A stretch of DNA of 64,000 nucleotides. It comes from Somniosus microcephalus. Its lineage: Eukaryota. A program made the translations under genes and the position numbers. The stretch lies in the NCBI GenBank assembly GCA_052327205.1, contig CM126224.1, forward strand, positions 28,706,001-28,770,000, in the 5' to 3' direction. The stretch's first letter is position 1. Each line of letters starts with the position of its first letter. A model generated the notes under the pieces. It was not told where the DNA came from. It did not search any database and was given only the letters and a program-made list of their open reading frames with translations. Positions 2,521-60,350 of the stretch are shown here, piece after piece.

Positions 2521-3201
2521 AACTAAAATTAGAAATGTTTAAAAACATAGGGAGCCTGAATTTGCAGTCGGAGGCATCCCGTGGGCGAATGCCTCCGAAC
2601 CGTAAGAAAAGTATGAACCTACCTGATGGTCCCGTACCTACGAAGACTCATGCTCCTGGGCCTCCAGGCGTAGGCCTGCGTAGAGGCCCATGGATCCCAG
2701 GGGTACATGCGTTTCGCAAGCGCCCCCGGGACCACGTGGGCCGGCCCAACCAATCAGAAAGGGGGATCCCAATTATGCTCATACGGAATTCCCATAAGCT
2801 TAATAGGAATCACATAAAAAGCACAAATTTCACACAACTCAAATAAAAAGAAATCATTACATAGTCAAAATTAATTAAAATACAATGTAATTAAACATTT
2901 AAAACAAAAAATAATTTGTTGAAAAATCAACGTAAACATTTTTGAAGGGTCCAAAAATAACCTAAGCTAATTTTAAAGGTTTTTTTAAGTTTAAATGATT
3001 AAAAAAAATTTTTTTATTTTAATATTTATTTCAACCCTTACGCTGGTAAAAGAAGGCCCTATGCCTGCTTTTACCGGGCATAAGATTTTTTGGGGCATTC
3101 GCTGGGCAGTAGTCGCGCAAACAGCCCAACTCTCCATCAGCGAATGTCCATTTCCTGGGGATGCGGTGGATCTGTCAAGCTGACACTTGACAGATCGCAA
3201 G

Positions 3202-3458
3202 TGTTAAGTATGTGTATTGTATTGAACAATTAACACAAAGACTTAAACGTATAACTCAAACAGGTCTTTACTGGTTGGAGGTAGGGACTGCACGTAGGTC
3301 TTTACTTCATGCCCACAGGCGGGAACTGAGGGGAGATCAGTACCCACAGTACTATTTATACCCCTATGGCCAGGAGTGGTACTGCGTATCACTACGCCCT
3401 ACAAGTAGTGCAGTCCTGTCCATAGGTTCAAAGTAGCACACATATTACATACACAACA
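3202..3458 (-). repeat. 3' LTR (257 bp)
   Basis: Direct repeat of 6523-6779; the only difference I see is C3402 vs T6723; TGTT...AACA termini. Confidence 0.97.
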
Positions 3459-3471
3459 TTCCTCCCTTCTT
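3459..3471 (-). promoter_or_regulatory. Polypurine tract AAGAAGGGAGGAA
   Basis: 13 purines on the - strand directly abutting the 3' LTR. Confidence 0.9.
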
Positions 3472-3569: not shown

Positions 3570-3766
3570 AAAACAGATCACAGATTCAGTCTCTGCGGAA
3601 AACAGTTCACAGATTCAATCTCTGTGGTGTAGTCGGTTCACGTTGCTGGAGTGACTCATTCAATAGTCCTTCCATGGATTTAACAGTTTGAACTTCCGAA
3701 CTGAATTGGCTCCTTTCGGAGGGACCACGTGTGTGATCTGGTAGAGGTAATAATGGTTCAGATGGG
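3570..3766 (-). pseudogene. Vestigial integrase C-terminal tail of pol (…REPTTPQRLNL*), last 29 bp tandemly duplicated
   Basis: Pro/Ser-rich stretch ending PQRLNL-stop just before the PPT, resembling Mag-type pol ends; out of frame with the main ORF; duplicate units at 3570-3598 and 3599-3627. Confidence 0.6.
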
Positions 3767-5959
3767 TCATCTTCTGTTTCGACTTTTCCTTTTCTGCTTC
3801 TTGGAGACTTTCTGGGCTCCACTGTCAGCTGCCTGCTGCATGCGCAGTTCCTCCTTCTCTTCCTCCTTTTTCCGTAGTAGAGCCACCTTCTCCCGATGTT
3901 CCGTAGACTTTCGGTGCTCCTCCATGATTTCTGTATGGTGGGAGTCGAAGTTACAAGTTGGGCAGGACAGGACATAGTAATATTCGGTGTCGTCCTGATC
4001 TAGGCCAGCGAGAGGGTCTTCTATTTCCTCCATACCCAGCTGGGCGTTAGCCAGCTTTTGTTCCAAGTCCAGACATCTTTCCTGAAGAGACTTCTTCATG
4101 CGTACCTCTTCATCCAGCTTTTTCTGGGCTTTCAGCAAGTCGTTTACTAATGACCTCATTTGAGATTTTACTACTTCAACTTCTTTTGGAGATTGATTGA
4201 TCGGACTATTCAATCCCTCTACTGGAGCAGCTGTTTCAGCGGTCTGTTGTTCTACGTTGACGTGAGTCAGCGTACTTTTGGCATCCAAGGGCTGCTCTGT
4301 TGCAGTCATCTCAGTCTGTGTTGCCACCTCAGCTCTTCCAATAACCTTTGAGAGCTCCGAACCCCTTTCGTTTGAATATTGAAGTTCGTGTTCAAGTTTT
4401 TCCCATTTCAGAGTCCTGTCCTTCAGCATATGCAGGAGTTGGCTGACCGTTAACTCCTCTGACATCAGACGTTTTGTGTGCTCCTGCTCCATTTTCTCCA
4501 TCAGCTGCTTCTGTTGTCTTTCCAGATTCTCCAACTCTATATCAAAGAACTCTTTCGTCGCATTCAACTCTTGCTCAAAACGGCGAAGCATTTGTTCTAA
4601 TTGCTGTTGTAGTTTGAAATGGAGTTGAGTTCGAGCCCGGTGTCCCTCAGAAATGGGCACATCAGTAGACTTGCCAGACTCAGAATCCACAGTTAAACTA
4701 TGTTGTTGTTGCTCAGTGGAATTCTGTGCTGAAACTTTGTCTTTTGCACCTGAGTTGGGCTTACCATCATCCGTTCCAGAGTCTGGGCCGACTATCTTCA
4801 CCGAGTTCTCACTCGTTATTGTTTGTAGGAAATGCCAGTCCATATTCATTTTCCTAATCCACTCCCGTCCTAGTAGTGGAGGACCTCCTTCAGATATCAC
4901 ATATAAGTCCATTATTTGACTGTCTTCGCCCTTGTGGACCACTGCAACCTCTATTTTCCCGATGGGGTACACTCTTTGCCCCGTGTATGTTTTCAATATA
5001 ATCCCCGTATCCTGTAGGGGAATATGTTGGAATAACTTTCCGTAATCTTTCTTATTTATGACCGTCAATGCCGATCCAGTGTCCAATTCCAGTTTTACTT
5101 GGACTCCTTCTATCTGAAGAGTGACCCAAATTGTCTGGAGGTCTGCACCCTTACCAGCGTTGAGTACTCTTAAGCTAGCCAGTTCATTACTGCTAGCGTC
5201 TGAATCGGACTCCTGTTCGGTCACCTTGTGTACCTTTGCGTATTTTCCTTGCGGTGACTTCTTGTTGCTGGTCTTCTTCCCTGACCTGCATACTCTAGCT
5301 ATATGTCCAAGCCTACCACAAGTTCTACATTCTTGGTTTTTAAACCAACACTGGTTCTGATCATGCGTTGTCTTTCCACAACGATAACATTTGCCAGAAC
5401 TCACACCCAATTTGTGTGCACTGAGCTCCGGTGACCGTAGCTGCATTACTGCCGTGCCTCTCGCTGCGGCTTCGTGTGCTGCTGCCATAGTGACCGCCTT
5501 CTCAAGCGTCAGCTCATTCTCCTCGAGCAGTCGCTTTTGTGTATCCTGTTTAAATAAACCACACACAAATTTGTCTCGAAGTGCCTCTGTCAGTCCCGTT
5601 CCAAACTGGCAATATTTCGCTAATTTACGCAATTCCAGCAAATATTCAGCATTGCTTTCATGCTGTAGCTGCCTTCTGTCGTAAAATTTAAATCGTTCCG
5701 CTAGCATCAGCGGCGTGGGGTTTAGATGATCTTTCAGGACAGTAACAATCTCATCGAACGTCTTATCCGCCGGTTCATCTGGTGATAACAGGTGTTTCAA
5801 TTGCCCGTATGTCTTCGCACCCATTAAATTTAATAATGTTAGAGCTTTATCTTGGTCACGAATTTTATTGGCCTTACAATAATTTTTTACTCTTTCAACA
5901 TATATGGCCCAATCTTCGAGGTCACTATCAAAGGTGCTAATATTCCCGTGTTTAGGCAT
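3767..5959 (-). CDS. 730-aa chimeric polyprotein: Gag (2x CCHC) - aspartic protease - linker - STK10/SLK-like coiled coil - OPTN-like coiled coil - DNAJC21-like C2H2 zinc finger and basic tail
   Basis: Uninterrupted ORF. Mag-type Gag N-terminus (DWAIYVERV...[11 protein letters not shown]), knuckles [14 protein letters not shown] and [14 protein letters not shown] (aa191-224), protease LDTGS...LLGREWI (aa292-368). C-terminal half matches remembered host proteins (see findings). Confidence 0.93.
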
Positions 5960-6511: not shown

Positions 6512-6521
6512 CTCGTCGCCA
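6512..6521 (-). promoter_or_regulatory. Primer-binding site TGGCGACGAG, complementary to the 3' end of tRNA-Ser(GCU)
   Basis: One nt inside the 5' LTR; vertebrate tRNA-Ser(GCT) ends CTCGTCGCCA. Confidence 0.85.
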
Positions 6522-6522
6522 G

Positions 6523-6779
6523 TGTTAAGTATGTGTATTGTATTGAACAATTAACACAAAGACTTAAACGTATAACTCAAACAGGTCTTTACTGGTTGGA
6601 GGTAGGGACTGCACGTAGGTCTTTACTTCATGCCCACAGGCGGGAACTGAGGGGAGATCAGTACCCACAGTACTATTTATACCCCTATGGCCAGGAGTGG
6701 TACTGCGTATCACTACGCCCTATAAGTAGTGCAGTCCTGTCCATAGGTTCAAAGTAGCACACATATTACATACACAACA
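6523..6779 (-). repeat. 5' LTR (257 bp) with TATA box (TATAAATA at 6681-6674) and AGTAAA poly(A)-like signals
   Basis: Direct repeat of 3202-3458; motifs read on the - strand. Confidence 0.97.
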
Positions 6780-7439
6780 GCAAGTTCCAGGTGTTCACGC
6801 GTGCGCATCGCGTGCGGAAATCTGGGACTTGCGGGGCATTTACGGCCAGCATACACGGTGCGCACACGGTCATAGGCCCCGGAAAATCAGGGCCAGGGTG
6901 TGTCCATGTTTGATCCAGAATTTAAAACTCTCTTCAGAGAAACTAATGCAGTAATAGAAAGTATCTCAAAATAAATGTGCAACTTCTTGCAAGGTGCAAA
7001 ATATATAACTTTTTATTTTTTAATTGGTGTATAGTTTATCAATGTGTAATGGTTTAAAGTCAATTAAATTATTGGAAGTATGCCGCCTTGCTTGTTTGAT
7101 CTACAGATGAAAATCACTATGAAATATTCTGTAAACCCTATGTACTCAATTTTTAACGCACCATCTTCAATCAATACTCTTTTGAGGCTAAGCAATTACA
7201 GAAGTTAACCATTAATGAATTGATAGTCTTGTTTCGTTGCCACGTTTGCAGAATTTAATGTCACTATTCAATTTCTTCACACCAGTGCTAATTTGAACTC
7301 AAAACAAGACCTTTGATTTTATCCTCTGAAACCTTTGCAATTAAATGGTGACTTGCTGCTCGTGGACTTCTCCACTATATTTCAGTTATTAGATGACTGA
7401 GAAAAATATTAAATTGGCTATCTTTTCCTCAAAATTAGA

Positions 7440-48577: not shown

Positions 48578-50025
48578 TACATAAGAACATAAGAAATAGG
48601 AGCAGGAGTAGGCCAATCGGCCCCTCAAGCCTGCTCCGCCATTCAATAAGATCATGGCTGATCTGATCCTAACCGCCAATCTACTATCACTGAACCATCT
48701 CCTGAATCTAACAGAATTAGACACACGAAATAGGAGCAGGATCAGGCTACACGGCCCCTGGGCCCGCTCCGCTACCCACAGGGCCATGACCGATCCGAAC
48801 CTAGACTCATGTCCAAATTCCTGCCCGTTCCCCGTAACCCTTTATTCCCTTTACTTCTCGGAAACTGTCTATTTCTGTTTTAAATTTATGTAATGATGTA
48901 GCTTCCACAGCTTTTTGGGGCAGCATATTCCATGGACCTACCACCCTCTGAGTGAAGTAGTTCCTCCTCATCTCAGTTTTGAAAGAGCAGCCCCTTATTC
49001 TAAGACTATGCCCCCTAGTTCTAGTTTCACCCATCATCGGGAACACCCTCCCCGCATCCACCCGATCCAACCCCTTCACAATCTTATATGTTTCAATAAG
49101 ATCGCCTCTCATTCTTCTGAACTCCAATGAGTAGAGTCCCAATCTACTCAACCTCTCCTCATATGTCCACCCCCTCATCCCCGGGATTAACCGAGTGAAC
49201 CTTCTTTGTACTGACTCGAGAGCAAGTATGTCCTTTCTTAAGTATGGACACCAAAACTGTACGCAGTATTCCAGGTGCGGTCTCACCAATACCTTGTACA
49301 ACTGAAGCAATACCTCCCTATTTTTATATTCTATCCCCCTAGCAATGAAAGCCAACATTCCATTGGCCTTCTTAATCACTTGCTGCTGCATACTAACCTT
49401 TTGAGTTTCGTGCACCAGGACCCCCAGATCCCTTTGTACTTCAGTACTTTCCAGTTTCTTGCCATTAAGATAATAACTTGCTCTACGATTTTTCCTGCCA
49501 AAGTGCATAACCTCACACTTTCCAGTATTGTATTCCATCTGCCAAATCTCTGCCCACTTACTTAGCCTGTCGATGTCCCCTTGCAGGTTTTTTATGTCCT
49601 CCTCACTCACTACTTTCCCTCCCATCTTAGTATCATCTGCAAACTTTGATATGTTACACTCGGTCCCCTCCTCCAAATCGTTAATATAGATTGTAAAGAG
49701 TTGGGGACCCAGCACCGACCCCTGCTGAACACCACTAGTTACTGATTGCCAGTCTGAGAATGAACCATTTATCCCAACTCTCTGCTTTGTTAGATAGCCA
49801 ATCCTCTATCCATGCCAGAACATTACCCCCAATCCCGTGATTTTTTATCTTAAGCAATAATCTTTTGTGTGGCACCTTGTCAAATGCCTTTTGGAAGTCT
49901 AAATACACTACGTCCACTGGTTCCCCTTTATCCACCCTATATGTTACTTCCTCAAAGAACTCTAGCAAATTTGTCAAACATGACTTCCCCTTCATAAAAC
50001 CATGCTGACTTTGTCCTATTAAATG
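48578..50025 (-). mobile_element. 5'-truncated young CR1 LINE; RT ORF remnant (302 aa open at 48807-49715)
   Basis: LDFQKAFDKVPH, LGPQLFTIYINDL, KFADDTK, RPHLEYCVQFW motifs; ACATAAGA-type tail. Confidence 0.95.
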
Positions 50026-58309: not shown

Positions 58310-60350
58310 ATAAGTACATAAGAAGGAGCAGGAATAGGCCACTTGGCCCCTCGAGCCTGCTCCGCCATTCAATAAGATCATGGCTGATCTTGGGCTCAAA
58401 GCCAGTTCTCTGCCCGCTCCCCATAACTCTTCAGTCCCTTATCTTGCAAAAATCTGTCTATATCCACCTTAAATGTATTTAATGACCCAGCCTCCACGGC
58501 TTTTTGGGGCAGAGAATTCCACAGATTTGCGACCCTCATCTCAGTTCTAAAAGGGCGACCCTTTATTCTAAAACTGTGCCCCCGCATTCTAAATTTCCCC
58601 ACGAGGAGAAACATCCTCTCTGCATCTACCTTGTCGAGCCCCCTCAGTATCTTATATGTTTCAATAAGATCACCTCTCATTCTTCTGAATTTCAATGAGT
58701 ATAGGCCCAACCTGCTCAACCTTTCTTCATAAGTCAACTCCCTTATCTCAGGAATCAACCGAGTGAATCGTATCTGAACTGCCTCCAATGCAAGTATATC
58801 CTTCCTTAAATAAGGAGACCAAAACTGTATGCAGTACTCCAGGTGTGGTCTCACCAATACCCTATACAGTTGTAGCAGGACTTCCCTGCTTTTATACTCC
58901 AACCCCCTTGCAATAAAGGCCAACATTCCATTTGCCTTTTTGATTACTTGCTGTACCTGCATGCTAACTTTGTGTTTCATGCACAAGGACCCCCAGGTCC
59001 CTCTGAACTGTAGCATTTTGTAATCTCTCTCCATTTAAATAATTTGCTTTTTTATTTTTCCTGACAAAGTGGATAACCTCGCACTTTCCTACATTATACT
59101 CCATCTGCCAAATGTTTACCCACTCATTAGCCTATCTATATCCCTTTGCAGATTTTTTGAGTCCTCTGCACAACTTGCTTTCCCACCCATCTTTGTATCA
59201 TCTGCAAAATTGGCTACATTACACTCAGTCCCTTCATCCAAGTCATTAATGTAGATTGTAAATAGTTGAGGCTCCAGCACCAATCCCTGTGGCACCCCAC
59301 TAGTTACAGTTTGCCAACCGGAAAATGACCCATTTATCCCGACTCTGCTTTCTGTTAGTTAGCCAATTCTCTATCCATGCTGATATATTTCCCCCAACTC
59401 CGTGAGCTCTTCTCTTATGCAGTAACCTTTTATGTAGCACCTTATTGAATGCCTTCTGGAAATCCAAATACACCACATCCACTGGTTCACCTTTGTCCAC
59501 CCTGCTCGTTACCTCCTCAAAGAACTGCAGCAAGTTTGTTAAACATGATTTCCCTTTCATAAAACCATGCTGACTCTCCTTGACTGCATTATGATTTTCC
59601 AAATGCCTTGCTACTGCTTGCTTAATGAAGGACTCCAGCATTTTCTCAACAACCGATGTTCGGCTAACTGGTCTATAGTTTCCTGCTTTCTGTCTCCCTC
59701 CTTTCTTAAATAGGGGTGTTACATTTGCGGTTTTCCAATCTGCTGGGACCTCTCCAGGGTCCAGGGAATTTTGGTATATTGCAACCAATGCATCCACTAT
59801 CTCTGCAGCCACTTCTTTCAAGACCCTGGGATGCAGGCCATCTGGTCGAGGGGACTTGTCATCTTTTAGTCCCATTGTTTTACCAAGTACTATTTCCTTA
59901 GTGATGGCGATTTGTCTTTAGTTCCCCCCTCCCTGTGGCCCCTTGATTATCCATTATTGGGATGTTGTTAGTGTCTTCTACCGTGAAGACAGATACAAAA
60001 TATTTGTTCAGAGTCTCTGCTATTTCTCCGTCCCCTATTATTAATTCCCCATTCTCATCCTCTAAGGGACCAACATTTACTTTAGCTACTCTCTTCCTTT
60101 TCATATACCTGTAGAAGCTCTTACTTTCTGTTTTAATATTTCTTGCCAGTTTACTCTTATAATTCATCTCTTTTTAGTCATCCTTTGCTGGTTTTTAAAA
60201 ATTTCCCAATCCTCTGACCTCCCACCAATCTTGGCAACATTGTATGCCTTTGTTTTCAATTTGATACCATCCTTTACTTCCTTAGTTAGCCACGGATAGT
60301 GCTCCCTTCTCTTAAAATTTTTCTTTCTCACTAGAATATATTTTTGTTGA
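58310..60350 (-). mobile_element. 5'-truncated CR1 LINE with frameshifted ORF2
   Basis: ORF pieces 60164-60358, 59898-60167, 59300-59875 and 58396-59034 with CR1 RT motifs; CR1 3' tail at ~58310-58395. Confidence 0.95.

Follow-up and report, generated by a model that had tools for sequence, protein, structure and literature searches.

The mechanism by which LTR retroelements capture pieces of host genes is already known, both from the maize element Bs1 (PMC13317346) and from animals (Tan et al., 2016; PMC5131818). In Bs1, an LTR retroelement, pieces from three host genes have been fused in one open reading frame (ORF) and retrotransposed again (PMC13317346), and there are one to five copies of the element per genome (PMC5131818). 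The LTR-mediated retrocopies of animals contain partial mRNA pieces from several parents, with microsimilarity at the junctions and secondary retroposition, and 'two or three' retrocopies are reported to be under constraint at the protein level (Tan et al., 2016; PMC5131818). Captured host pieces in LTR elements are usually seen as passengers, or only as future host genes. The element described here carries one captured domain, a zinc finger, that combines residue-level constraint with accelerated change of its surface inside a selfish lineage.

This element lies in the window, by which we mean the whole 64,000-nucleotide stretch of DNA that was analysed. Like Bs1, it is a non-autonomous LTR element whose ORF joins pieces from three host genes; unlike Bs1, it belongs to a family with about 11,000 finger-bearing copies in which intermediates co-exist, and selection on the captured domain could be tested at single residues. 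It shares with the retrocopies of Tan et al. the partial mRNA pieces, the several parents, the junction microsimilarity and the secondary retroposition. Those retrocopies are low in copy number and were judged as host genes, whereas selection here appears at the level of element replication and alters the captured surface. What is new is that a captured domain has been held in its fold yet remodelled at its surface within an element lineage. The finger resembles the first finger of DNAJC21/Jjj1 and fingers of the JAZ/ZNF346 and U1C types in descent, spacing and a predicted hairpin-helix-kink-helix (PMC6710477; PMC9775027). It differs from the DNAJC21/Jjj1 and JAZ-type proteins in having a single finger, a reversed basic surface, a lost match to PF12171/PF12874, and neither the J domain nor the ZHD, both of which are present in the host DNAJC21 (P0126). 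Among the papers listed by a literature search, none deals with this element family or with the capture of DNAJC21.

The element and its captured host sequences

The element is an LTR retrotransposon of 3.6 kb that encloses a 730-amino-acid ORF on the minus strand (5959-3767), with the finger as the C-terminal part; the segment 4027-3767 (minus) holds the last 86 codons and the stop. Its two 257-nt LTRs, the 3' LTR at 3202..3458 and the 5' LTR at 6523..6779 (both minus), differ by one mismatch and are bordered by identical target-site duplications, GCAAG, at 3197..3201 and 6780..6784. A polypurine tract, recognized from the sequence, adjoins the 3' LTR (3459..3471, minus), and a primer-binding site adjoins the 5' LTR (6512..6521, minus), its 10 nt being identical in all LTR-paired copies listed; we take it to match tRNA-Ser. 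The ORF encodes, in order, Gag, two CCHC knuckles, protease, STK10, optineurin and the DNAJC21 finger, so that host-gene pieces occupy the place of reverse transcriptase, RNase H and integrase. Gag and a linker (5138..5959, minus) include the knuckles at amino acids 191-224 (read from the sequence; zf-CCHC E 0.003), and the aspartic protease (4835..5137, minus) has a DTG motif, with weak Pfam matches that fall below the cut-off here and exceed it in the sister copy L048. An LTR pair, a target-site duplication, a primer-binding site, a polypurine tract and gag plus protease, with reverse transcriptase, RNase H and integrase all missing, characterize non-autonomous Ty3/Gypsy elements, and the window element is a young, high-copy, non-autonomous Gypsy-type LTR element. 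We presume that its family belongs to the Mag-like clade. Integrase-bearing relatives have their 3' end in common with the window element, and two of them (L204 and L212) survive in the genome. Judged by eye, the surroundings (about 2540-3196 and 6785-6900) suggest that the element is nested in another, GC-rich repeat. Elsewhere in the window, ORF pieces at 48807-49805 and 58396-59917 presumably represent reverse transcriptase-like sequence of CR1-type LINEs.

Captured STK10 pieces (amino acids about 383-498; 4466..4813, minus) are 81% identical to shark proteins and include the PKK coiled coil (Pfam PKK over the cut-off, E 2.5e-8). They are followed by an optineurin coiled-coil piece (amino acids about 495-646; 4022..4477, minus; 69% identity, E 8e-51), which is joined to the DNAJC21 piece by a short STK10 stretch, MEEIED, placed by alignment at 4016..4033 (minus) and agreeing in peptide (MEE) with the optineurin end. 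The DNAJC21 piece (3781..4015, minus) lies within the earlier STK10 capture, as comparison of finger-bearing copies with the finger-less precursors L207, L208 and L210 revealed (insertion limits about 4015-3781). RNA reads that skip 3775-4016 (10 and 28 reads) agree with these limits.

The preliminary description had derived the finger from DNAJC21, and this origin is now established through a sister copy. A search with the sister finger retrieved shark DNAJC21 (71% identity, E 3.5e-17), DNAJC21 being the top match and nearly all of the 120 matches listed, and the sister DNA aligns without a break to the window DNA through the finger stretch. The window finger itself, compared pairwise with shark DNAJC21 (P0126), gave 43% identity over 51 amino acids (E 7e-10), the residues of the tail matching P0126 440-450. 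It is too diverged for blind searches to detect DNAJC21: the protein was absent from the database search with the window piece (0/122 candidates at E<=1) and from the three matches, unrelated or generic, among 1.84 billion proteins, while the PDB sequence search with the finger returned one unrelated match (E 3.8) and the Pfam search of the piece nothing over the cut-off. When the genome was searched with the Pfam jaz finger, 29 of the 30 loci fetched were sister elements. The captured finger corresponds to the first of the zinc fingers in host DNAJC21.

Two other sources were rejected. The C-terminal finger of optineurin itself has CCHC ligands at x3 spacing, and the match to optineurin stops at amino acid 646; a one-step swap for the finger of another gene is contradicted by the presence of intermediates and by synonymous sites held in common. 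In its own genome, the host DNAJC21 gene was traced to two upstream exons, with none later in the next 200 kb, which contains two N runs, and a direct DNA search for the host finger exon was swamped by element copies. The gene breaks off after the two recognized exons beside a 500-N run (G000:C1:2646797-2647297; L149). Exons found by a ZHD family search were DNAJC2-like and not DNAJC21 (those on C17 we take to be DNAJC2).

The splice variant c.983+1 of human DNAJC21 places an intron inside the finger (PMC6710477); by our computed numbering this is codon 328, within finger 316-338. The element runs on without interruption at this position, which makes spliced RNA the likely source, and the DNAJC21 piece was likely copied from spliced mRNA by template switching. 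Our reading of STK10 is that it may have entered as looped-back RNA, the order of its segments in L205, L208 and L210 having been judged by eye. Finger-less precursors (L205, L207, L208 and L210) survive in the genome with STK10 only, or with STK10 and a longer optineurin piece. In a sister subfamily (L024, L025 and L028; duplicates L188-L190), which bears the most host-like finger, optineurin is replaced by a myosin-tail-type coiled coil (Pfam Myosin_tail_1 over the cut-off) that we assume to be cingulin-like. Relative to the older copies L091, L106 and L173, dS is about 0.5 across gag-protease (5959-4835) and about 0.1 across the captured part, indicating that the cassette moved to another backbone. 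Long open frames occur in some finger-bearing copies (1413 amino acids at G000:C3:66244449 and 1167 at C9:8745303; usually 740-990), and copies of the G type (L057, L060, L084 and similar) have lost most of the post-finger helix by an in-frame deletion, with finger and basic tail kept.

Constraint and change within the finger

The best database matches are to cartilaginous fishes, which suggests that the genome, of 6.4 Gb, is shark-like. Copies were drawn from it with a 22-mer from just upstream of the finger, which has 3,985 exact matches (control 0). The main sample took in 90 copies, from the first 91 places less a tandem neighbour, 60 of them at full length; it is unbiased for the finger and misses subfamilies with an altered 22-mer. 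To these were added 25 jaz-selected loci, 20 DNAJC21-selected loci and 12 of an intermediate type. The 20 top matches of a first genome search, four duplicate loci and the host exon L036 were left out, as was L187 from most counts because it contains two elements. The finger was located in 136/136 sequences.

Codon alignment and a predicted hairpin with a kinked helix place the C2H2 finger at amino acids 664-688 (3896..3970, minus). The exact C-x2-C-x12-H-x5-H spacing that had been described is present in the translated ORF, with ligands C666 (3964-3962), C669 (3955-3953), H682 (3916-3914) and H688 (3898-3896). The full motif was found in 89 of the 90 sampled copies, the remaining one having a private Cys change. 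It had also been suggested that the ligands, named in advance of our test, would be more conserved than their neighbours among copies. This is the case: shared variants, defined as present in two or more of the 90 copies, affect 17 of the 21 non-ligand codons and none of the four ligands (Fisher p 0.0055). With 28.8 non-synonymous steps, the chance of sparing all ligands was 0.005, or 0.010 without codons 670-672, which may represent one multi-base event. Eight positions are invariant (L664, C666, P667, C669, H682, K684, S685 and H688), and the same eight are conserved in 117-120 of 120 host DNAJC21 proteins. Private mutations do strike ligands (1/10); in a small control, five of eight Cys/His elsewhere in the captured region were invariant. 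Conservation of the fold of the finger is thus supported.

Both gag (shared-variant omega 0.29) and protease (shared-variant omega 0.37; ML omega 0.35, LRT 31) are under purifying selection, which argues that the ORF acts in cis. For the STK10 and optineurin pieces, counting gave omega 0.68-0.74 and maximum likelihood gave 0.93 (LRT 0.1) and 0.78 (LRT 1.75) respectively, neither different from 1. As these two neighbouring captured pieces look neutral, they provide an internal control, and the finger would appear to be the exception among captured pieces that mostly need only stay in frame. When the window copy was compared with six older copies, the dN of the finger was 0.30-0.43 and its dS 0.07-0.16, with dS over all captured parts at 0.10-0.15; the excess of finger dN was significant in these six tests, which have one branch in common (p 8e-7 to 0.004; 0.0002-0.049 without codons 670-672). 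The highest dN of any 25-codon window outside the finger was 0.21. Along the lineage towards the window type, a test picked after the data were seen and comprising 25 codons and five copies, finger omega was 4.55 (LRT 5.35, p 0.02). The corresponding family-wide value over 14 haplotypes was 1.39 (LRT 0.6), or 1.96 for non-ligand codons (p 0.12), neither different from 1; single steps between subfamilies were mostly not significant, and the G lineage had no acceleration of finger change. Because the lineage was chosen post hoc, the pairwise tests overlap, the single steps are weak and family-wide omega is near 1, positive selection on the finger is suggested and not established. The purifying selection on the fold that had been put forward holds for the ligands, which are fixed; the residues between them have changed at an accelerated rate, beyond mere tolerance.

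The host core Phe (673) is lost in the intermediate types and in most copies, and the two newest types have a new Phe at 671 (codons 671 and 673 lie in 3949-3941). The codon for Phe 671 differs at all three bases, and none of the 100 matches listed holds an intermediate. The exchange is akin to the aromatic swap known from ZFY fingers. Inspection of the codon table by eye gave no sign of a single mutation signature of the editing type.

One explanation for the data is that the finger is neutral filler that must only be kept in frame; chance, a few multi-base events and recombination between subfamilies would then account for the retained ligands and the burst of change. The neutral behaviour of STK10 and optineurin and the family-wide omega of the finger would fit this model, as would the existence of finger-less precursors and the plain traces of recombination, for example in L102, which combines the gag and optineurin of the window type with a different finger. 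It is opposed by the retention of ligands at positions named in advance, with its p of 0.005-0.01, and by the 12- and 5-residue spacings, which are intact in 89/90 copies despite three short deletions or duplications near the finger across subfamilies. Furthermore, the finger and its surroundings differ little at synonymous sites (0.06-0.10 over amino acids 600-706), and so the finger has no deeper genealogy. We give this explanation a small chance of being correct.

Surface charge and possible roles of the finger

AlphaFold with the host alignment predicted a hairpin, a helix, a kink and a helix (pLDDT 88.5), and single-sequence prediction produced the same fold (best pLDDT 89.3; the other four of five models 69-78). 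A fold search returned nothing at E<=0.001, the nearest structures being generic U1C and JAZ-like fingers (TM 0.5-0.7, E 1.1-4). The CX2CX12HX5H spacing together with the predicted fold would assign the finger to the JAZ/zf-met type, for which Atlas feature matches of 0.91-0.92 are weak leads. Fingers with this spacing bind dsRNA mostly by electrostatics, through two helices with a kink and a positive surface (PMC9775027, citing Burge 2014).

RNA binding, which had been anticipated from the finger type, is not supported in the window subfamily. The net charge of the finger is +3 to +6 in 120/120 host proteins and -3 in the window type, and PF12171 and PF12874 are absent from the window-type finger at E<=1, whereas sisters and host score over the cut-off. 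Five of the six host basic residues are gone, and six surface positions that are 99-100% fixed in hosts have been replaced. Across the element finger types, charge runs from +3 to +6 (host-like) through +1 to -1 and on to -4 and -3 (window). Four of the six changes at Lys codons are Lys to Glu, a bias that is borderline (p 0.025-0.077), as Lys-to-Glu substitutions are transitions. In the helix that follows the finger, charge has been gained (host -4, window +1), and thus the basic patch may have moved and not vanished. One of the host-like subfamilies, itself young, is more basic (+6), and the copy-number success of the types is confounded with the swap of the gag-protease backbone, shortening and the change of tail.

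We propose, tentatively and at slightly less than even chances, that the finger has been kept folded but disarmed, selection having held the fold and stripped the basic RNA face. The element polyprotein would be made and be important in cis, as may be judged from the omega of about 0.3 for gag and protease, and every Gag molecule would carry the finger along. An unfolded finger, or one that sticks to host RNA or to pre-60S ribosomes, would lower particle output, and the copies to spread best would be those whose finger is intact but disarmed. The weakest step is that the basic tail may serve as a nuclear-import or nucleic-acid patch in place of the cut-off end of pol.

A more far-reaching proposal, which we regard as doubtful, is that the retrotransposon has domesticated the host finger, with the metal site kept, the core rebuilt, the charge reversed by positive selection and a new interaction aiding expansion from hundreds to thousands of copies, all stages being present in one genome. 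Since natural sequences of host-like, intermediate and derived fingers exist side by side, the disarming or repurposing of a host domain by a parasite is directly testable. Another possibility is a new function or an arms race: the acidic face would bind a new partner, such as a helper polymerase or integrase or a factor of chromatin or import, or evade a host restriction factor, with repeated surface change as the outcome. Change did go on after the basic residues were lost: the nearest intermediate type (2,709 copies) differs from the window type by six non-synonymous and no synonymous changes. Phe was gained at 671 after Phe 673 was lost, and among the dated types LTR divergence is lowest in the window type. 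Such a function is nevertheless unlikely, as the candidate partners remain hypothetical, the fold search yielded only generic fingers with E>1, and the G lineage, whose surface is different, spread widely.

The basic C-terminus, copy number and family RNA

The ORF ends in a basic stretch of 11 residues, and the tail as a whole (amino acids 717-730, net +9; 3770..3811, minus) is made up, according to the junction alignment, of a DNAJC21-native stretch (P0126 residues 440-450) and five STK10 codons read out of frame. This is not the point where integrase would end, as had been thought: the C-terminal remnant of pol lies about 130-160 nt further on, in a different frame. Past the stop, an STK10 remnant and then a pol/integrase C-terminal remnant can be read out of frame at 3607..3780 (minus), a reading based on the ORF at 3607-3999, which has a pol-type end and aligns to the integrase-bearing L204 and to STK10. 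The pol end is displayed by the integrase-bearing relatives and an STK10-only precursor, and later copies end in frameshifted versions of it that become ever richer in Arg. In most current copies the stop comes earlier, after the DNAJC21 basic stretch and five out-of-frame STK10 codons. In most copies sampled the last 14 residues have a net charge of +7 to +10. A basic C-terminus thus persists through successive replacements, which would fit an import signal like the C-terminal NLS of Ty1 integrase (PMC2490736), and on this evidence a putative NLS in the tail is plausible. Purine-rich acidic codons give Arg when read out of frame, so that some of the basic tail can arise without selection. It is very improbable that the finger has kept RNA binding, for instance for the packaging of element RNA, and that the tail is an integrase-like NLS, despite the invariant Lys-Ser kink, the resemblance of the model to U1C and JAZ fingers, the basic last 14 residues and the Ty1 precedent, given the reversed finger charge, the Arg that out-of-frame reading yields by itself and the two CCHC knuckles, the usual packaging module, which Gag retains under purifying selection.

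The subfamilies form a stepwise series from the host-like finger to the window type. Exact-pattern counts gave 397 host-like, 4,857 intermediate, 2,709 near-window and 3,247 window-type copies, that is, about 10,800 altered fingers against 397 host-like; the patterns are unequal in length, and the host-like share of 3.5% is therefore approximate. LTR divergence was below 1% in all dated types (70 pairs among 79 loci), with a median of 0.4% in the window type, the lowest, and 0.8% in the others, type I being undated.

Family RNA was abundant in two runs, X7 and X8, from a single study. Their source, organism B, may differ from the window species. In these runs 19,269 of 16.7 million records (X7) and 17,541 of 14.4 million (X8) matched the element at >=90%. 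These reads show RNA at the level of the element family, and not of this copy or its protein. Over 3735-4623, X7 reads in one direction outnumbered those in the other by a factor of about 9 to 30, consistent with sense transcription if the library was of the usual stranded kind, and X8 was near even. RNA reads also extend into the left flank of the element.
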